This document shows, in pieces, positions 54,179-61,461 of a stretch of 64,000 bases of DNA; positions within the stretch are counted from its first letter, which is position 1; every line of letters begins with the position of its first letter. The DNA comes from a virus, in the IMG/VR virus record IMGVR_UViG_3300046832_000578; one strand, written 5' to 3'. The position numbers and the translations under genes are program-made. Under the pieces are notes generated by a model. That model had not been told where the DNA came from, made no database searches, and saw only the letters and a list, made by a program, of their open reading frames with translations.

Positions 54179-54624
54179 AACAAAAATGGATTGATGCATT
54201 CATGGACACTGCGGAGAGATTCGCCCAGTTGTCCAGTGCAAAACGATTACATGTTGGTGCGGTTGTCGTTAAAGACAATCGTATCATCTCAATTGGATAT
54301 AATGGTATGCCATCTGGATGGACAAACGAATGCGAAAATGTAGTTCAACATTCAGATGACACTGTGAGTTTAGTAACGAAAGACGAGGTTATACATGCTG
54401 AAGCAAATGCAATTATCAAACTGGCTCGTGATGGTGAATCAGGCAATGGCTCCAGTTTATTCTGCACTCATGCTCCTTGCATTCATTGTGCTAAGTTAAT
54501 TCATGGTGCAGGAATAGATACAGTTTACTATCGCCACTCTTACAGAGACGAGGATGGTTTATCTTTTTTGCAAAAATGTAAAATAAATGTTGAAAAAGTT
54601 GACTTTAATTCAATAATGAACTAA
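54175..54624 (+). CDS. cd: dCMP deaminase
   Basis: GYNG, HAEANAI, PCIHC. Confidence 0.93.
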   Translation: MKQKWIDAFMDTAERFAQLSSAKRLHVGAVVVKDNRIISIGYNGMPSGWTNECENVVQHSDDTVSLVTKDEVIHAEANAIIKLARDGESGNGSSLFCTHAPCIHCAKLIHGAGIDTVYYRHSYRDEDGLSFLQKCKINVEKVDFNSIMN

Positions 54625-54657
54625 GATAGTGACTAAATAGATTACTGTCTGAAACAA

Positions 54658-54721
54658 AACCCTACAAGATGTAAGGTTATTCCAGATAGTGCTTGACAAA
54701 TAATCAAAGGTGTAGTATAAT
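54658..54721 (+). promoter_or_regulatory. consensus sigma70 promoter of the tRNA operon with upstream palindrome
   Basis: AACCCTAC-N5-GTAAGGTT; TTGACA-17-TATAAT (54693-54721). Confidence 0.85.
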
Positions 54722-54727
54722 TCAATC

Positions 54728-54853
54728 ATGAAATCGAAAATGATATCCAAACAAATGCAAAGACATCTCCCGCTATTAAGTGGCTGGACATGCTCACGCA
54801 CAACATTTGGATATAATGCGATTGAGGATGCCGAGGGTTTGGATAAGAAGTAA
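54728..54853 (+). CDS. putative leader peptide of the tRNA-operon attenuator (41 aa)
   Basis: ATG at the predicted transcription start; 31 distinct codons; last codons overlap the antiterminator arm. Confidence 0.7.
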   Translation: MKSKMISKQMQRHLPLLSGWTCSRTTFGYNAIEDAEGLDKK

Positions 54854-54913
54854 CTGACACCAGTCTACTTACCCAAACCCTCTGAGATGAAAGTCCAGAG
54901 GGTTTTTTGTTTT
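54833..54913 (+). terminator. mutually exclusive antiterminator (54833-54882) and terminator (54875-54913)
   Basis: gagggtttggataagaag pairs with ctacttacccaaaccctc; aaaccctctg/cagagggttt stem plus T tract. Confidence 0.8.
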
Positions 54914-54961
54914 ATAGCCATCGTGCTTTAAACATTGTTCTTTTACAATTCAGGATTCTGT

Positions 54962-55035
54962 TGGGGGTTAGTGTAGCGGTAACACTACAGACTTTGACTC
55001 TGTCATCACTGGTTCGATCCCAGTACCCTCTGCCA
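54962..55035 (+). tRNA. tRNA-Gln(UUG)
   Basis: cloverleaf, anticodon TTG, CCA. Confidence 0.9.
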
Positions 55036-55101
55036 TATAAAAACACATTAGTTCCCCGCAGGGATAATTGACAACAGGTTCATGCTAGTGTGTTTCTATA
55101 T

Positions 55102-55175
55102 GGGAGTATAACTTAATGGTAAAGTAGCTGGCTTTTAACCAGCAAATCAGAGTTCAATTCTCTGTGCTCCTACCA
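55102..55175 (+). tRNA. tRNA-Lys(UUU)
   Basis: anticodon TTT, CCA. Confidence 0.9.
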
Positions 55176-55187
55176 GTGTTCTTTGGT

Positions 55188-55261
55188 GTGACTATAACTT
55201 AATGGTAAAGTCGTGGATTGTGATTCCGCTTATCTGGGTTCAATTCCCAGTAGTCACCCCA
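55188..55261 (+). tRNA. tRNA-His(GUG)
   Basis: anticodon GTG, C73, CCA. Confidence 0.88.
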
Positions 55262-55272
55262 AAGAATATTAT

Positions 55273-55348
55273 GCCGATATAGCTCAGTTGGTAGAGCACT
55301 TGTTTGAAGCACAAGGTGTGGGCGGTTCGATCCCGTCTATCGGCACCA
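55273..55348 (+). tRNA. tRNA-Phe(GAA)
   Basis: anticodon GAA, CCA. Confidence 0.9.
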
Positions 55349-55353
55349 GATAT

Positions 55354-55428
55354 TCCCGATTAGCTCAGCGGTAGAGCACTCGCTTGATAAGCGATAGGTC
55401 AGTGATTCGAATTCACTATTGGGAACCA
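55354..55428 (+). tRNA. tRNA-Ile(GAU)
   Basis: anticodon GAT, CCA. Confidence 0.88.
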
Positions 55429-55434
55429 AGTTAT

Positions 55435-55526
55435 GGAAGATAATGCAGCGGGGTTGGTCCTGCGACCAGCCTTGAAAACTGGGTTCTGAGAAATCGGATG
55501 GGGTTCGACTCCTCTGTCTTCCGCCA
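55435..55526 (+). tRNA. tRNA-Ser(UGA)
   Basis: anticodon TGA, long variable arm, G73. Confidence 0.88.
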
Positions 55527-55534
55527 CATTATGT

Positions 55535-55609
55535 GCCTCGTTATTTCAGTGGTAGAATGTCTCTTTTACACGGAGAAGGTCGGCAGTTCGAATCTGTCAC
55601 GAGGTACCA
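55535..55609 (+). tRNA. tRNA-Val(UAC)
   Basis: anticodon TAC, CCA. Confidence 0.9.
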
Positions 55610-55610
55610 T

Positions 55611-55685
55611 GCGTCTTTAGTAAAATGGATATTACAGTAGGCTACGAACCTACGAGTGGGAGTTCGATTCTCTCAGGACGCACCA
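55611..55685 (+). tRNA. tRNA-Arg(ACG)
   Basis: anticodon ACG, CCA. Confidence 0.9.
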
Positions 55686-55691
55686 AGATTA

Positions 55692-55781
55692 GGAAGATGG
55701 GCAGGACGGTAATGCAGCAGTTTGCTAAACTGTAGATTCACGGAAGTGGGTCATAGGGTTCGATTCCCTAATCTTCCACCA
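55692..55781 (+). tRNA. tRNA-Ser(GCU)
   Basis: anticodon GCT, long variable arm. Confidence 0.88.
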
Positions 55782-55786
55782 AAAAT

Positions 55787-55861
55787 GGGCTGGTAGCTTA
55801 ATGGTAAAGCAGTGAACTCATAATTCATTGAGTCTGTGTTCAATTCACAGTCAGCCCACCA
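55787..55861 (+). tRNA. tRNA with CAU anticodon, probably Ile2 (lysidine)
   Basis: anticodon loop CTCATAA, GGGC acceptor start. Confidence 0.75.
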
Positions 55862-55862
55862 T

Positions 55863-55941
55863 GCCCCTGTGGACAAATTGGGAAAGTCGTCTCTCTCAAA
55901 AGGAGAAATTGTTCTGAGTTCGAATCTCAGCAGGGGTACCA
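55863..55941 (+). tRNA. tRNA-Leu(CAA)
   Basis: anticodon CAA, A73, short variable region. Confidence 0.85.
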
Positions 55942-55948
55942 GAGTTTT

Positions 55949-56025
55949 GCGGATATGATGGAATTGGTATACATATCAGACTTAAAATCTGAGTTCTCCG
56001 AGTTCGAGTCTCGGTATCCGCACCA
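55949..56025 (+). tRNA. tRNA-Leu(UAA)
   Basis: anticodon TAA, A73, short variable region. Confidence 0.85.
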
Positions 56026-56026
56026 T

Positions 56027-56101
56027 ACGGCATTCGTTCAATGGATAGGACAGCACTCTTCTAAAGTGCGAATGTGGGTTCGATTCCTGCATGCCGTGCC
56101 A
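56027..56101 (+). tRNA. tRNA-Arg(UCU)
   Basis: anticodon TCT, CCA. Confidence 0.9.
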
Positions 56102-56108
56102 GAATTAT

Positions 56109-56185
56109 GTGGGTGTGCTGCTGAATGGTTAGGCGACGGATTGCAAATCCGTTTTATGCAGGTTCAAGTCCTGTCACCCACTCCA
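56109..56185 (+). tRNA. tRNA-Cys(GCA)
   Basis: anticodon GCA, U73. Confidence 0.9.
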
Positions 56186-56201
56186 AGTTGCAAAATACTT
56201 G

Positions 56202-56230
56202 TTGTCTTGCAAGATTAGTTGTAGTATAAT
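56202..56230 (+). promoter_or_regulatory. internal promoter of the tRNA array
   Basis: TTGTCT-17-TATAAT. Confidence 0.75.
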
Positions 56231-56366
56231 AGTTTATTCAAAAGTCCTTTCTAAGTCGTGTGTCAATTCATACGCATAAGGCAGAGCATGGCACTGGATG
56301 TTGCAAATCGCCTACACACCTCCCATGCAAGCAGGTTTGGTGGTTCCTGATAAAAACTACCACTAT

Positions 56367-56441
56367 GCACGATTCGTCTATCGGTTAGGACACTGCCCTT
56401 TCACGGCAGGAAGAGGAGTTCGATTCTCCTATCGTGTACCA
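56367..56441 (+). tRNA. tRNA-Glu(UUC)
   Basis: anticodon TTC, CCA. Confidence 0.9.
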
Positions 56442-56442
56442 G

Positions 56443-56669
56443 ATTTAATTACATTGGTTACCAAGCCAGTAGGTAATTCAGATAGTGAGTAACCAGTTGA
56501 CGGACTGGCACTTCTGAGTTACACGAAAGATGGAAATCAGCATAGGCTTCGATCAGTAGTCACGCTGGAACAACTTGGTGCGTAATGTGTGCGACAGACA
56601 AGTCCATGGACGGCATGGTAGGGCAGGTTCAAAACTGTTATTTCTGTCAAACACCCAGTGTAATTAAAT
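56443..56669 (+). ncRNA. candidate structured ncRNA closed by a 15-bp stem
   Basis: atttaattacattgg / ccagtgtaattaaat; GC-richer interior. Confidence 0.5.
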
Positions 56670-56670
56670 G

Positions 56671-56824
56671 TGGTATTAGTTTAGTGTTATCAAGGTATCG
56701 TGATCTGATCAATCACTACTCGACAGTAAGGGTGCGACCGACACTGTCTGATATAACTGTTATTCGCTTGTCAGTGCTAGCTACATTGTTGACAAATTGG
56801 CACGATAACACTAAACTAATATCA
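56671..56824 (+). ncRNA. candidate structured ncRNA closed by a perfect 18-bp stem
   Basis: tattagtttagtgttatc / gataacactaaactaata. Confidence 0.5.
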
Positions 56825-56826
56825 TT

Positions 56827-56911
56827 GGAGACACGGCACAGTTGGAGGGGTGCGGCAGACTGTAAATCTGTTCTTTAGGGCTAGTAGGTTCGAATCTTAC
56901 TGTCTCCACCA
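56827..56911 (+). tRNA. tRNA-Tyr(GUA)
   Basis: anticodon GTA, variable arm. Confidence 0.88.
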
Positions 56912-56917
56912 GTTTTT

Positions 56918-56992
56918 GGCTCGTTAGTATAATGGTCATTACAGCGGATTGTCTATCCGCTTATGGGAGTTCGATTCTCCCACGAGTCGCCA
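56918..56992 (+). tRNA. tRNA-Asp(GUC)
   Basis: anticodon GTC, G73. Confidence 0.9.
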
Positions 56993-56998
56993 GATTAT

Positions 56999-57072
56999 AG
57001 CGGATTAGAGAAAAGGTATCTCAGCAGTCTCATACGCTGCAGTTGGTGGTTCGAGTCCATCATCCGCAACCA
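56999..57072 (+). tRNA. tRNA-Met(CAU), initiator-like 1:72 mismatch
   Basis: anticodon CAT; A1.A72 mismatch. Confidence 0.75.
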
Positions 57073-57316
57073 AACCTGCAGCTAATCACTGCTAGTGTGA
57101 TCCGCACGAGAGAAACTGATTGACGATCAGTAGGATGGTTCTCCCTTTGAATAGGGCATGGGTTCATCCATGGGTCTACCTAACCAGCGTTGGCAACACG
57201 AGAGTTCTGTCCGTGGCGAGTGGGTGGAGGGCATGCTTGATGGAGAAACTGGTGCGATGTACACAATCCAGAAGTAAACTGATGTGCTATAATTACCACG
57301 ACGGAGAGAAAGCATT
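57073..57316 (+). ncRNA. candidate ~245-nt structured ncRNA between tRNAs
   Basis: GC-rich spacer with several hairpins and long-range ccgtgg/ccacg pairing. Confidence 0.5.
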
Positions 57317-57317
57317 T

Positions 57318-57391
57318 GCCCAATTAGTTAAATGGTAGAACATCGGTTTTGTAATCCGAGGATGGGAGTTCGATTCTCTCATTGGGCACCA
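57318..57391 (+). tRNA. tRNA-Thr(UGU)
   Basis: anticodon TGT, CCA. Confidence 0.88.
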
Positions 57392-57397
57392 AATTTC

Positions 57398-57472
57398 GGT
57401 GATGTAGCACAGCGGTAGTGCAACTGCTTCATACGCAGTAGGTCAGTGGCTCGAATCCACTCATCACCACCA
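57398..57472 (+). tRNA. tRNA-Met(CAU), elongator
   Basis: anticodon CAT, paired 1:72. Confidence 0.82.
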
Positions 57473-57480
57473 AAAGTTTT

Positions 57481-57557
<77 letters not shown>

Positions 57558-57574
57558 AGATAAGTAGTGTTATT

Positions 57575-58312
57575 ATGAAACGAATGGCATTATACCTGCA
57601 CGACCCAGAATGTTCTGAAGATTGCGTATATGCAATGGTTCATGCACTGTCGTCTTCATATCAAATTAGAATTTTTAGCGAGAGGGAATTAGATGATGAT
57701 GACTTCTTTACCAGTATTGATGTTATTGCTTTTCCTGGTGGTATTGGTGATAGCGACTCGTATTTTAATTTCTTCACTAGAAGAAGAGCGAATCGAATCG
57801 CCGAATTCATACAGAGAGGTGGTTGCTATCTTGGTATCTGCATGGGTGCTTATTGGGCTGGAAGTCGGTATTTTGATATACTGGATAATTTAGATTCTGT
57901 ACAGTATATCAAAAGACCAACAGCAGACATTCGCAGATCTTATGCCACGACTGCTAAGATAGAATGGAATGGCTCGACAGAGCAGATGTACTTCTATGAT
58001 GGTTGCACTTTTGTTGGAGAGAATTTTAAAACAATTGCGACATATGCCAATGGTGATCCAATGGCAATCATTCAAGGAAGAGTAGGATTAATAGGATGTC
58101 ATCCTGAAGCACCAAAGTATTGGTATGAGAAACCATGGCAATACATAGAGAAACATTGGAACGATGGAAGACACAGTGAGTTATTGTTAGATTTTGTAAA
58201 CGAGTTATGCCCAGATGGTGGAATTGGTAGACACGCTGGTCTTAGAAGCCAGTCTTCGGGTGAGAGTTCGAGTCTCTCTCTGGGCACCATACAAGGAGAA
58301 CAGATTGCGTAA
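57575..58312 (+). CDS. class I glutamine amidotransferase-like (BPL_N-like) protein; 3' end runs through tRNA-Leu
   Basis: FPGG, YLGICMGAY nucleophile elbow, GCHPE. Confidence 0.8.
   Translation: MKRMALYLHDPECSEDCVYAMVHALSSSYQIRIFSERELDDDDFFTSIDVIAFPGGIGDSDSYFNFFTRRRANRIAEFIQRGGCYLGICMGAYWAGSRYFDILDNLDSVQYIKRPTADIRRSYATTAKIEWNGSTEQMYFYDGCTFVGENFKTIATYANGDPMAIIQGRVGLIGCHPEAPKYWYEKPWQYIEKHWNDGRHSELLLDFVNELCPDGGIGRHAGLRSQSSGESSSLSLGTIQGEQIA
58209..58289 (+). tRNA. tRNA-Leu(UAG)
   Basis: anticodon TAG, typical Leu D-arm, CCA. Confidence 0.9.
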
Positions 58313-58550
58313 TCTGAAAGGTAAGCGTATCAAAGAATTCGGTAGTACAGTAGTTGTTGAAGATGGTAAGTTTGAAAAAGCAATCAGACAATTCAAGAAG
58401 AAAGTAGAAGATAGTGGATTGTTGATGTTGTTGCGAGAAAAACAAGCATATATTAAACCAACAACAAAAAGAAAAGTAGCAAAGAATGCAGCTAAGAAAA
58501 GATGGAAAAAGAAATTAGCACTGCAATCAATGCCTGAGAAATTATATTAA
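58305..58550 (+). CDS. rpsU: ribosomal protein bS21
   Basis: FEKAIRQFKKKV...GL...LRE...Y.KPTTKRK...AAKKR; AAGGAG RBS before TTG. Confidence 0.9.
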   Translation: MRNLKGKRIKEFGSTVVVEDGKFEKAIRQFKKKVEDSGLLMLLREKQAYIKPTTKRKVAKNAAKKRWKKKLALQSMPEKLY

Positions 58551-58557
58551 GTTTTAT

Positions 58558-58632
58558 TCCAGTGTAGCACAGCGGTAGTGCAGTTGACTGTTAATCAATT
58601 GGTCGTTGGTTCGATCCCAGCCACTGGAGCCA
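58558..58632 (+). tRNA. tRNA-Asn(GUU)
   Basis: anticodon GTT, G73. Confidence 0.9.
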
Positions 58633-58637
58633 GTTTT

Positions 58638-58712
58638 GGGTTGTTAGTTTAGTTGGGAAAACACTTGCCTTGCACGCAGGAGTGGGGAGTTCGAATCTCC
58701 CACGATCCACCA
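58638..58712 (+). tRNA. tRNA-Ala(UGC)
   Basis: anticodon TGC, G3.U70. Confidence 0.9.
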
Positions 58713-58728
58713 AATAAGTAGTTGTTAT

Positions 58729-58804
58729 GCTCTGTTAGCTCAGTTGGTAGAGCAACTGATTAGTAATCAGTAGGTCTGCGGTTCGAATCCGTAACAGAGC
58801 ACCA
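58729..58804 (+). tRNA. tRNA-Thr(AGU)
   Basis: anticodon loop TT-AGT-AA, canonical cloverleaf. Confidence 0.88.
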
Positions 58805-58820
58805 AATTATAGGAGTAGAT

Positions 58821-59039
58821 ATGAGTGATGGTGGTAAAGGTAGTAAACCAAGACCATTTAGTGTAGATCAAGAAACTTTCGAGAATAATTTCGATAGAAT
58901 TTTTGGTAAAAAGAATACATTGCCAGAGTATGAATTAAACAAATCAACTGGCGAAGTGCAGAAAGTGGATGACAACACAGGTGTGACACAGGATGAGTAT
59001 CAAGACATTCTCAGCACCGAAGATTGTCTAACAAAATAA
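58821..59039 (+). CDS. hypothetical protein (MSDGGKGSKPRP family)
   Basis: AGGAG RBS. Confidence 0.7.
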   Translation: MSDGGKGSKPRPFSVDQETFENNFDRIFGKKNTLPEYELNKSTGEVQKVDDNTGVTQDEYQDILSTEDCLTK

Positions 59040-59040
59040 T

Positions 59041-59114
59041 ATCTCGATAGTGTAATGGCAGCATACCAGTCTCCAAAACTGTTGGTCGGGGTTCGAGTCC
59101 CTGTCGGGATGCCA
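59041..59114 (+). tRNA. tRNA-Trp(CCA)
   Basis: anticodon CCA, G73. Confidence 0.88.
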
Positions 59115-59116
59115 AT

Positions 59117-59190
59117 GCGGGATTAGTTTAATGGTAAAACTACAGATTTCCAATCTGTTGTTATCAGTTCGATTCTGATATTCCGCTCCA
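59117..59190 (+). tRNA. tRNA-Gly(UCC)
   Basis: anticodon TCC, U73. Confidence 0.9.
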
Positions 59191-59208
59191 ATTAAGATAG
59201 AGGTAATC

Positions 59209-59685
59209 ATGCGTAAAGATATTGACATCGATGAAGTGAAAGACTTTATCATGGCACAGAGTCCTGAATCAAAGATTTATATCGGTGGTGACTCTGAACG
59301 ATTTAATATCGGAAATGAATTCTACGCTGATTACATCTTAGTAATTGTTGTTCATATTAATGGTAATAATGGTTGTAAAATCTTCGGTGAAGTGTCTCGT
59401 GAGAGATGCTACGACCAGAAGAAAGATAAACCACGTATGCGATTGATGAATGAAGTTTATAAGATTGCAGATCTATACCTAAAACTGCATGATGTTCTGG
59501 AGGACAGAGAAGTCCAAGTGCATCTGGATATCAACCCAGACGAAATGCATGGATCATCATGTGTAATCAACGAAGCAGTTGGTTACATTAAAGGTATGTG
59601 CAATGTAGTTCCATTCGTAAAACCAAACGCATTTGCAGCATCCTACGCTGCAGACAGATACAAGTCTTACATGCGTGCAGCATAA
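59209..59685 (+). CDS. RNase H-like YkuK (DUF458) family protein
   Basis: IYIGGDS, RLMNEV, VHLDIN, KPNAFAAS.AAD. Confidence 0.8.
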   Translation: MRKDIDIDEVKDFIMAQSPESKIYIGGDSERFNIGNEFYADYILVIVVHINGNNGCKIFGEVSRERCYDQKKDKPRMRLMNEVYKIADLYLKLHDVLEDREVQVHLDINPDEMHGSSCVINEAVGYIKGMCNVVPFVKPNAFAASYAADRYKSYMRAA

Positions 59686-59686
59686 T

Positions 59687-59715
59687 TTGACATGCAGTCT
59701 ATTTTATTGTATAAT
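59687..59715 (+). promoter_or_regulatory. consensus sigma70 promoter
   Basis: TTGACA-17-TATAAT. Confidence 0.8.
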
Positions 59716-59728
59716 AAGTAGTAAGAGT

Positions 59729-59803
59729 GCAGGATTAATTCAGTGGTAGAATGTCTGCTTGCCAAGCAGAATGCCATCGGTTCGAACCCGATATCCTGCT
59801 CCA
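59729..59803 (+). tRNA. tRNA-Gly(GCC)
   Basis: anticodon GCC, U73. Confidence 0.9.
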
Positions 59804-59816
59804 ACATGGAGATAAT

Positions 59817-60017
59817 ATGACAGATAAAGTTGAACCAATTTCGTTTAAAGAGCAGTGGGAAGCAAAGAAACTACTCAAGCGTACCAAGAAGAAAGCCAAG
59901 AAAGATCTGCTCAATCGTGGACATTCTCCCAGAGAAGCCAGTGGTATGATTAAGCAAGCACTCAAAAATATTCAATCCAATAAGCCAATCAAACGTGCTG
60001 CTGGACGAGGTGGATAA
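59817..60017 (+). CDS. small basic hypothetical protein
   Basis: GGAG RBS. Confidence 0.6.
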   Translation: MTDKVEPISFKEQWEAKKLLKRTKKKAKKDLLNRGHSPREASGMIKQALKNIQSNKPIKRAAGRGG

Positions 60018-60025
60018 AAAAGTTT

Positions 60026-60033
60026 TATAAATA
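60026..60033 (+). promoter_or_regulatory. T4-type late promoter
   Basis: TATAAATA. Confidence 0.7.
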
Positions 60034-60420
60034 GATGTGAATCAGGGAAAGGGAAAAAGAACTGATTCGCCTTTATTATTGTTAGTATAATCACCGAAAA
60101 GATGTGAAAAGGGAATAGGTGGAGTAGTTGTTTTTATTATTAGGATTCCAAAGATAATGTTAAATTTCGGACAAAGTGCGATTGAGTTCGTGTCCTTACC
60201 AAGAATAGTGAGCATTCTCACTGCGGTAGGATATGAATCTTATTTCCCACGACCTTAGTACTCAGTCGAGTTACTCGAACATCTGCGTATGGCTCAATGC
60301 CATCTGCGGAACAGTACACTGCTACACATTTTCTAACGATCCAACAATACAGATCCGCAGATGGCTCAATGCTGTCTGCGGATTTTTTCATTCTAAATTC
60401 CCTTTTTACGGAGTAAAAAT

Positions 60421-61461
60421 ATGCCTTCTACAATCTTAGGCGAACACGCACTCACACTAGTAGCAGGAACTACTGCACAACGACCAGCGTCACCAGTCGA
60501 AGGTATGACTCGATATAATACAACAATTGGTGTAGTAGAATCGTATCATGGCACAGGTGGATGGATTGCATTATCCAATGTCTTTCAAGCAGTTGGTGGA
60601 ACAGAAAGTACTATTAGTGGATACAAATATCATATATTCACATCATCATCTACATTTACAGTTCAATCTGGTACAAGAACTGTTGAATTCGTTGCAGTTG
60701 CTGGTGGTGCTAGTGGTGGTGGACGACATGGTGGTGGTGGCGGTGCTGGTGGTATGGTTATTGGGTCTCGTTCTGTAGCATCTGGTGCATATACAGTTAC
60801 AGTTGGTGGTGGTGGTGCTGCTGCTTACGGTTCACAGGTTGCAGGTAATGATGGTGGAACTACATTCTTTGGTGACACTGCAACTGGTGGTGGTGGTGGT
60901 GGTGCATACAATGGCACAAATGGTCGAAATGGTGGATCTGGTGGTGGTGCTGGTCACTCAAATACAAATGCTGGAGCATCAAATCAAGTAGCATCTACTT
61001 TTGGTACTGCTTATGGTTTTGCAGGTGGCAACAATCCATCTGGTGGTAATGAAGCATCAGGAGGTGGTGGTGCTGGTGGTGTTGGTGCAGTCGCACAAGG
61101 TGAGGTTAAAGGTGGTGATGGTGGCGCAGGAAGAATATGGTCTGATGGATACTACTATGCTGGTGGCGGTGGTGGAGCAGCGTGGGCAGGTAATACTGGT
61201 GGCACTGGAGGTATTGGCGGTGGCGGTGGTGGAAATATTGCTGGTGGTGCTGGTACTGTTGGACAAGGTGGTGGTTCTGCCAGAAATAGTGGGCAAGCAG
61301 GTGCAAATGCACCAAACAATAGTGTAGCTACCTTCGGAGGAGCAGGTGGTGCAAATACTGGTGGTGGTGGTGGTGGATCAGGACAAGCAGATAACGAGGG
61401 TTATATTAGTTACTCTGGTGCTGGTGGATCTGGTATCGTTGTTATTAGATATGAATTATAA
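60421..61461 (+). CDS. glycine-rich virion (fibre-type) protein
   Basis: GTTAQRP, YKYHIFT, many GGGG runs, GSGIVVIRY end. Confidence 0.8.
   Translation: MPSTILGEHALTLVAGTTAQRPASPVEGMTRYNTTIGVVESYHGTGGWIALSNVFQAVGGTESTISGYKYHIFTSSSTFTVQSGTRTVEFVAVAGGASGGGRHGGGGGAGGMVIGSRSVASGAYTVTVGGGGAAAYGSQVAGNDGGTTFFGDTATGGGGGGAYNGTNGRNGGSGGGAGHSNTNAGASNQVASTFGTAYGFAGGNNPSGGNEASGGGGAGGVGAVAQGEVKGGDGGAGRIWSDGYYYAGGGGGAAWAGNTGGTGGIGGGGGGNIAGGAGTVGQGGGSARNSGQAGANAPNNSVATFGGAGGANTGGGGGGSGQADNEGYISYSGAGGSGIVVIRYEL

Follow-up and report, generated by a model that had tools for sequence, protein, structure and literature searches.

The window analyzed here, a stretch of 64,000 nucleotides, comes from an uncultured, T4-like phage whose DNA polymerase is ∼54% identical to those of cyanomyoviruses. 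A dCMP deaminase gene lies upstream of a short open reading frame (ORF) on the plus strand (positions 54728 to 54853), which consists of 41 codons plus a TAA stop codon, encodes 19 of the 20 amino acids, and has a tRNA array downstream of it. This leader ORF is preceded by a sigma-70-type promoter on the same strand (54693 to 54721), composed of TTGACA (54693 to 54698), a 17-nt spacer, and TATAAT (54716 to 54721), for a match to the consensus at 12 of 12 positions. Since the −10 box ends 6 nt before the ATG, transcription is predicted to start at about position 54728, the A of the ATG itself, and the mRNA would be leaderless; no Shine-Dalgarno sequence is present upstream of the ORF. A palindrome, AACCCTACAAGATGTAAGGTT (54658 to 54678), is located 14 nt 5′ of the −35 box and is kept in distant relatives. 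The palindrome resembles a terminator when the minus strand is scanned; it may stop transcription arriving from upstream or serve as a protein-binding site.

The array comprises 27 tRNA genes, the first of which, tRNA-Gln(UUG), lies 48 nt 3′ of the intrinsic terminator described below. The first block of the array (54962 to 56185, plus strand) contains genes for Gln, Lys, His, Phe, Ile, Ser(UGA)-like, Val, Arg, Ser, CAU, Leu, Leu, Arg, and Cys tRNAs and is the presumed target of the putative regulation. The Ser(UGA)-like gene (55435 to 55522) was missed by ARAGORN; it scores 35.6 bits against the Rfam tRNA-Sec model and is the counterpart of a called tRNA-Ser(tga) in one relative (L002). Jointly, the 27 tRNA genes and the Ser(UGA)-like gene cover all 20 amino acids. 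No promoter-like site was found in the window between the terminator and tRNA-Gln, the next one being at 56202. The spacer over that interval (54915 to 54950; CCATCGTGC...TTGTTCTTTTACAAT) is kept among relatives with diverged leaders and may be a processing signal.

Farther along the array, a second perfect promoter of the TTGACA-17-TATAAT form (59687 to 59715) is found 13 nt upstream of tRNA-Gly(GCC), without a leader ORF; part of the array is therefore not behind the putative attenuator. Two protein genes are embedded among the tRNA genes (57575 to 58312 and 59209 to 59685), one of the encoded proteins having BPL_N/GATase-like domains and the other being RNase H-like (PF04308, phrog_11311). 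DNA searches of an isolate-phage collection gave no match to the leader element or to the second-clade element introduced below, and a comparison of the 4-kb tRNA region with isolate phages gave matches at single tRNAs only.

Amino acid and codon content of the leader

Translation of the leader ORF reproduces exactly the composition claimed in an earlier, sequence-only reading of this DNA: 41 codons, 31 of them distinct, and 19 of 20 amino acids, with Val missing. As that reading had it, no codon is used twice among the Leu (four residues), Ser (four), Gly (three), Arg (two), Ile (two), or Ala (two) positions. The codons TCG, CCG, and GCG, which had been described as uncommon, each account for 5 to 11% of their synonymous set in the long ORFs of the window; the same range holds for TCC, CTC, GGC, CGC, GCC, and ATA, giving nine such codons in the leader. 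A cognate codon had also been claimed for 13 of the 14 tRNAs in the first block, which is correct if the Ser(UGA)-like gene is counted. Lys is the most frequent residue, occurring five times, and no codon forms a run; tandem or clustered regulatory codons are absent. There is no Val codon in this leader, although the first block encodes tRNA-Val, and Val is likewise missing from 20 of 79 homologous peptides.

Taken alone, the diversity in this window is moderately unusual, with P values from ∼0.004 to 0.1 depending on the null model. When codon diversity was compared with that of random 41-codon coding windows, as the sequence-only reading had proposed, 2.2% of the windows from 60 long ORFs had 31 or more distinct codons, 3.7% had at least 19 amino acids, and 0.4% had both. 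Nucleotide shuffles of this ORF that stay open give a P value of 0.105 for at least 19 amino acids; the amino acid coverage of this single sequence is not significant relative to composition-matched shuffles. Given its amino acid sequence, 28.7 ± 1.8 distinct codons would be expected from phage codon usage versus the 31 seen (P = 0.17), so synonymous diversity alone is not significant. Across the family described below, synonymous-codon diversity beyond amino acid diversity has a mean z score of +1.29, and an excess of such diversity is weakly supported for window and family alike. The sharpest single-sequence measure, and the one closest to the idea behind the earlier reading, is coverage of tRNA species. 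The 40 elongation codons are readable by 25 of the 27 phage elongator tRNA species (Val-UAC and Thr-AGU are unsampled), versus a mean of 18.4 ± 2.3 in coding windows of the same length, of which 0.04% reach 25.

Relatives of the element and their start signals

Relatives were gathered by using the neighboring deaminase to search viral contigs, which yielded 80 loci, 26 of them with a recognizable homolog of the element. Further relatives were retrieved through a pattern of conserved nucleotides, for a total of 86 distinct RNAs and 79 distinct peptides of 36 to 45 residues. Since most of these relatives were retrieved by patterns taken from the switch itself, the invariance of the switch motifs partly reflects the way they were retrieved; the 26 loci that the deaminase search brought in have the same features as the pattern-retrieved relatives. 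None of the 86 distinct homologous RNAs interrupts the leader frame, and indels are whole codons in the alignments made.

In 67 of 81 relatives, a promoter matching the consensus at 9 or more of 12 positions stands upstream of the ATG, ending 6 to 7 nt before it in 51 cases and 10 to 11 nt before it in 16. Among the other 14, 12 have a Shine-Dalgarno-like site 5′ of the ATG, mostly AAGGAA. The leaders thus appear to be either leaderless (or nearly so) or equipped with a Shine-Dalgarno site, which is the pattern that a real start codon would predict. In 74 of the 75 relatives with enough downstream sequence, the element is followed by tRNA-Gln(UUG) in the same orientation. For 48 of these 75, the interval from terminator to tRNA-Gln has no promoter-like site, so that the tRNAs are reachable only through the terminator; a second promoter is present in the remaining 27, where the element is consequently not the sole route to the tRNAs.

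Amino acid coverage is kept while the peptide drifts

None of the 79 distinct homologous peptides contains fewer than 19 amino acids, and 52 have the full set of 20. By comparison, when 40-residue windows were drawn at random from phage proteins of the same loci, 19 amino acids were found in 4.1% and 20 in 0.36%, and composition-matched shuffles contain at least 19 in 11.8% and 20 in 1.7%. Among small ORFs of 30 to 46 codons in the six frames of the loci, at least 19 amino acids were found in 87 of the 89 that end in the RNA switch versus 88 of 3,889 others, a few of the 88 being family members missed by the pattern. For Leu, Arg, Ser, and Gly, both codon boxes are represented in 88 to 100% of leaders, as are ATY and ATA for Ile. 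Compared with shuffled or spurious ORFs, a check to which the sequence-only reading had tied its claim, diversity is far above expectation across the family, whereas for the sequence in the window the excess is weak (P = 0.105). Single-linkage clustering of the peptides merges almost all of them at 40% identity, because short, diverse peptides align by chance, and gives 15 clusters at 50% identity; it was rejected as a basis for a combined P value.

This coverage is retained as the sequence changes. Over 22 phages, the leader has a pN of 0.29 and a pS of 0.40 (pN/pS, 0.73), with differences at the three codon positions nearly flat (0.30/0.29/0.35). The adjacent dCMP deaminase of the same phages has a pN of 0.18 and a pS of 0.69 (pN/pS, 0.26), with positional differences of 0.24/0.13/0.49. 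The leader peptide drifts faster than the deaminase while its synonymous sites are constrained. In place of the conservation of an ordinary protein, the homologs therefore show what the earlier reading had looked for, namely a drifting sequence (pN of 0.29 versus 0.18) in which 19 to 20 amino acids are kept.

Single residues illustrate the same behavior. Cys is next to Trp in 36 peptides and in the N-terminal part in 38, with both arrangements in 0 and neither in 5. Each of the 79 peptides has a single Tyr and all but one (78 of 79) have a single His, with sites that differ among peptides. A maximum-likelihood tree of the RNAs requires at least 11 changes of the Cys site, 7 of the Tyr side, and 7 of the His context. 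When N- and C-terminal halves were swapped between members, mean coverage fell from 19.66 to 19.09, and the natural value was reached by 0 of 20,000 random pairings. Other positions do not move: in a 53-sequence alignment, L14, W20, R24, and G37 are invariant and P15, A31, E33, and D34 are nearly so, a degree of conservation that exceeds the needs of coverage and may point to a function of the peptide or to further RNA constraints. Amino acid diversity across the family lies far beyond chance, and these sequence comparisons argue that selection keeps the leader at nearly full coverage.

A predicted terminator/antiterminator switch at the end of the ORF

The leader ORF runs into a predicted antiterminator hairpin of ∼20 bp (54833 to 54882, plus strand; ΔG, −23.5 kcal/mol), whose 5′ strand is formed by the last six leader codons and the stop codon (54851 to 54853) and whose 3′ strand ends in CCAAACCCTC (54873 to 54882). 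Overlapping it is an intrinsic terminator (54876 to 54913, plus strand) with a 9-bp, G+C-rich stem (AACCCTCTG/CAGAGGGTT) and an 11-nt loop, followed by the T6GT4 tract TTTTTTGTTTT. The 5′ strand of the terminator shares 7 nt (AACCCTC) with the 3′ strand of the antiterminator, making the two structures mutually exclusive. When relatives were folded singly, the antiterminator formed in 84 of 85, and in 84 of 85 it exceeded the terminator in stability, the mean ΔG values being −22.6 kcal/mol for the antiterminator and −17.1 kcal/mol for the terminator. The stop codon lies 15 to 25 nt into the antiterminator 5′ strand in 84 of 85 main-clade sequences.

Both hairpins were evaluated for compensatory change. 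For the terminator (83 sequences), 91.5% of alignment cells are paired, 63 are changed on both sides versus 26.6 in shuffles (0 of 500), and the covariation score is 0.202 versus 0.095. For the antiterminator on a MAFFT alignment, 81.5% of cells are paired, with modest margins over controls since subfamilies slip out of register; RNAalifold, applied to a plain MAFFT alignment of whole transcripts, recovered the terminator alone. Because indels misalign the two arms of the antiterminator, each sequence was instead folded separately, and arms were swapped between sequences. In the swaps, inner arms paired with their own partners at −7.3 kcal/mol versus −5.4 kcal/mol with foreign ones (0 of 20,000 permutations). 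The lengths of the T run and the A run in the antiterminator also covary (TTT/AAA versus TTTT/AAAA), and in two relatives with a frame shifted at the 3′ end (L012 and L042), the nucleotides of the arm are kept while the peptide is not, and a stop codon still occurs within a few bases.

A further hairpin lies inside the ORF (CCGCT-ATTA-AGTGG; 54770 to 54783, plus strand), ending 1 nt before the single Trp codon (54785 to 54787). Nearly every one of 58 distinct segments contains it, the mean ΔG being −6.2 versus −2.6 for shuffles, and its arms vary (CCACT/AGTGG, CCGTT/AACGG, CAGCTAC/GTAGCTG, ATCACA/TGTGAT, and CTCTAT/ATAGAG). Across the relatives, it ends 0 to 2 nt before the single Trp codon and ∼14 nt 5′ of an invariant CACG. 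By analogy, one might guess that it is a candidate RNA polymerase pause or synchronizing hairpin. A strand pairing with the antiterminator 5′ arm (1:2 type) was looked for and none was found, so that an absence of translation should give readthrough. An Rfam cmscan of positions 54500 to 60500 (E value of ≤1) gave only tRNAs and chance matches, none of them within 54700 to 54950 and none a T-box.

A second clade with the same design

One deaminase locus (L050) carries a leader with little resemblance to the others that nevertheless contains all 20 amino acids. At this locus, the three pairing segments of the switch have changed jointly, from GAGGG/CCCTC/GAGGG in the main clade to TGGGG/CCCCA/TGGGG. 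A scan with this switch variant retrieved 35 further stretches, almost all directly 5′ of tRNA-Gln arrays. The second-clade ORFs are mostly 31 to 46 codons long and start either with an ATG at the promoter or with a GTG preceded by a Shine-Dalgarno sequence (GGAG or AGGA); their stop codons are mostly 10 to 28 nt into the antiterminator 5′ strand. Of the automated calls, 15 of 20 have 19 to 20 amino acids, including 19 in peptides of 31 to 34 residues, with per-peptide P values mostly between 0.002 and 0.03. Two of the five low calls appear to be artifacts: L226 was taken in the wrong frame, the GTG-started frame having 19 amino acids, and L202, located 5′ of tRNA-His, may be a false hit.

Two features of the leaders recur in both clades. 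The motif W-x(2-4)-[STAY]-R-P is found in the main clade (residues 20 to 26 in the window) and in several second-clade peptides (L217, L221, and L230), and it is left unexplained by the coverage hypothesis. Codon choice is also skewed: the leaders (window and L001 to L234) favor GAG and CAG over GAA and CAA (0.89 and 0.80 versus 0.32 and 0.35 in phage genes), with corresponding values in the second clade of 0.64 and 0.68 versus 0.26, and they favor TTT, TAT, GAT, and ATT over the C-ending codons. The favored codons are those wobble-read by phage U34 and G34 tRNAs (NNG for U34 and NNT for G34), a preference seen for Glu, Gln, Phe, Tyr, Asp, and Ile. As a general rule, a preference for wobble-read codons fails for His and Lys in the second clade, and it is treated here as no more than a lead.

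Interpretation as an attenuator and alternative explanations

We consider it likely, if short of assured, that the element is a ribosome-mediated transcription attenuator that heads the tRNA array and senses general decoding speed. Its architecture has the structural hallmarks of such a device—start signals, a terminator, a mutually exclusive antiterminator, and a suitably placed stop codon—while the usual run of regulatory codons is absent.

It is improbable, in our judgment, that the ORF is instead a conventional gene for a small protein, transcribed from its own promoter to its own terminator, whose ∼40-residue product has a function in its own right and targets, for example, the machinery of translation or the tRNAs; the hairpin at the ORF end would then belong to a 3′ structure of the mRNA, and the amino acid diversity would be a by-product of a compact, conserved sequence. 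Such a gene would account for the self-contained unit of promoter, ORF, and terminator, for the invariance or near invariance of L14, P15, W20, R24, A31, E33, D34, and G37, and for the separate tRNA promoter that follows the terminator in 27 of 75 relatives. It fits poorly with the 48 relatives in which tRNAs without a promoter of their own lie behind the terminator and with the evolutionary profile of the leader, whose pN/pS of 0.73 and flat codon positions contrast with the normal profile of the deaminase (0.26). Single residues change site while being kept exactly once, and the second-clade peptides are hardly similar to those of the main clade, yet coverage and switch are kept. The peptide belongs to no Pfam or PHROG family and corresponds to one cluster among 5.8 billion proteins. 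An AlphaFold2 model based on 53 sequences has a pLDDT of 61.9, a pTM of 0.14, and no secondary structure, which is weak evidence in the same direction.

We give equally little credence to an attenuator that works through a nascent-peptide arrest motif (W..R-P) and, like TnaC or SecM, is tuned to a single specific ligand or factor instead of general tRNA supply, with diversity being secondary. The same antiterminator/terminator geometry would serve such a device. W20 and R24 are invariant in the 53-sequence alignment, with Pro as the consensus at the next position, and W-x-x-Y-R-P-E recurs in several second-clade peptides. Several other second-clade leaders lack the motif, however, having Trp near the C terminus and no R-P, and part of the conservation in this region falls on nucleotides (CACG) and on the covarying hairpin beside the Trp codon. 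Moreover, the motif leaves unexplained the selection for 19 to 20 amino acids, the relocation of Cys, Tyr, and His, and the retention of both codon boxes of the six-fold amino acids.

Slightly less probable still is a structured small RNA or processed leader RNA that is released by termination and acts in trans, like rnTrpL, with the reading frame incidental or secondary: strongly constrained synonymous sites (pS of 0.40 versus 0.69), several covarying helices that fill most of the 186-nt transcript, and the reported ability of terminated attenuator RNAs to act in trans (PMC6614838) favor it, but the frame is open over 86 distinct sequences with whole-codon indels in the alignments made, Shine-Dalgarno sites occur in precisely those leaders whose ATG lies away from the 5′ end, amino acid coverage is a property of the translated frame only, and there is no Rfam family match. 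A role in trans is compatible with the attenuator reading as an added role.

Proposed mechanism and its implications

If the element is a ribosome-mediated attenuator, host RNA polymerase would start at the consensus early promoter, producing a transcript that begins at or beside the AUG, and a ribosome would translate the 41 codons while the polymerase moves on. A ribosome that keeps pace would, at the last codons or the stop codon, cover the antiterminator 5′ strand (54833 to 54853); AACCCTC would then be free, the terminator would form, and the transcript would end at about position 54913. With a ribosome lagging or stalled upstream, the more stable antiterminator would form first and block the terminator, and the polymerase would read on into tRNA-Gln and the later tRNA genes. 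The lag could be caused by scarcity or lack of charging of any one of ∼25 tRNA species or by a general impairment of translation. Almost all amino acids are present in the leader, mostly in one or two copies, as are codons for almost all phage tRNA species; the time a ribosome needs to cross it would therefore reflect how well each of them is supplied, and the switch would report general decoding speed rather than the availability of one amino acid. Slow decoding of almost any codon would thus probably raise transcription of the tRNA genes.

We infer from the conserved features that the ORF is translated, that readthrough is regulated, that slow decoding turns the switch on, and that tRNA shortage is the natural signal, the last two points resting on the switch geometry and on tested systems. 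The sequence-only reading had proposed a general sensor of tRNA-pool integrity. Coverage, drift, and switch geometry all fit this proposal; the part of it that relied on the sampling of synonymous codons is weak (P = 0.17).

More tentatively, and with somewhat less than even confidence, we suggest that in phages of this lineage the whole tRNA set is under demand-driven feedback, in which an all-amino-acid stopwatch switches the tRNA genes on upon a shortfall, and that this logic may recur in unrelated tRNA-rich phages. Possible causes of a shortfall would include a mismatch with host codon usage, host shutoff, starvation, host anticodon nucleases, and other tRNA-targeting defenses. Reasons that have been proposed for the large tRNA sets of phages include compensation of codon usage, substitution for host tRNAs that have been degraded, and evasion of defenses that cleave tRNAs. 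If the attenuator reading is true, the phage would measure decoding performance and respond to it, and the question of why and when phages use such tRNA sets would become testable with a small reporter. Attenuation, so far a matter of “one amino acid, one pathway,” would then also include a compact probe selected to contain all amino acids, and tRNA genes themselves would be a new class of target for leader peptide attenuation. The dozens of diverged leaders that keep their coverage amount to a natural experiment on the sensitivity of an attenuator to single codons.

Comparison with known systems

In the trpL, hisL, leuL, thrL, pheL, ilv, and pheST attenuators of enterobacteria, a promoter is followed by a short leader and mutually exclusive folds, and the position of the ribosome decides between them; the stop codon is placed such that a terminating ribosome masks the antiterminator 5′ strand. 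The phage element likewise has a promoter, a short leader, competing hairpins, and this placement of the stop codon. Whereas enterobacterial leaders run codons for one to three regulatory amino acids, the phage leader runs none. The enterobacterial 1:2 anti-antiterminator gives termination without translation, and such a pairing was not found in the phage element. The targets also differ, being biosynthetic or synthetase genes in enterobacteria and, presumably, tRNA genes in the phage. T-boxes resemble the phage element in its presumed purpose, since they sense tRNA charging and control genes of the decoding apparatus by a terminator/antiterminator switch. They differ in binding uncharged tRNA directly, one tRNA each, with no need for translation.

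For the vmlR and yxjB attenuators of Bacillus subtilis, general slowing of the ribosome on a leader ORF is reported to be conveyed through polymerase pausing and a choice between terminator and antiterminator (PMC9226507 and PMC6851288). These attenuators respond to ribosome-bound drugs and control resistance genes, and the abstracts of the two papers mention no pan-amino-acid composition for their leaders.

The closest tested system is the upstream ORF (uORF) of mycobacterial whiB7. Efficient translation of this uORF leads to a rho-independent terminator, and many translation stresses lead to an antiterminator and readthrough (PMC10274678). The amino acid content of the uORF sets which starvations are sensed, as was shown with Trp-less and His-less variants, and the uORF of Mycobacterium smegmatis contains every amino acid except Cys (PMC10274678). 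The two systems thus share a short uORF 5′ of a rho-independent terminator, a competing antiterminator, and sensing that is general or, for the phage, predicted to be so. In its absence of a codon run, the phage leader resembles this general kind of sensor and not the trp/his kind. They differ in composition, in that the whiB7 uORF is 25 to 40% Ala and its coverage varies by species (that of Mycobacterium tuberculosis lacks several amino acids), and in target, in that whiB7 encodes the transcription factor of a cellular stress regulon, whereas the presumed target here is phage tRNA genes, whose products are themselves parts of the decoding apparatus. Our search of the literature on attenuation of tRNA genes in phages found no account of it. 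Relative to whiB7, the phage leaders are 31 to 46 codons long, nearly flat in composition, and often leaderless, and they retain 19 to 20 amino acids even between deeply diverged members. The novelty lies in this compact, flat, all-amino-acid composition kept under drift, together with its phage setting and with tRNA genes as the putative target.
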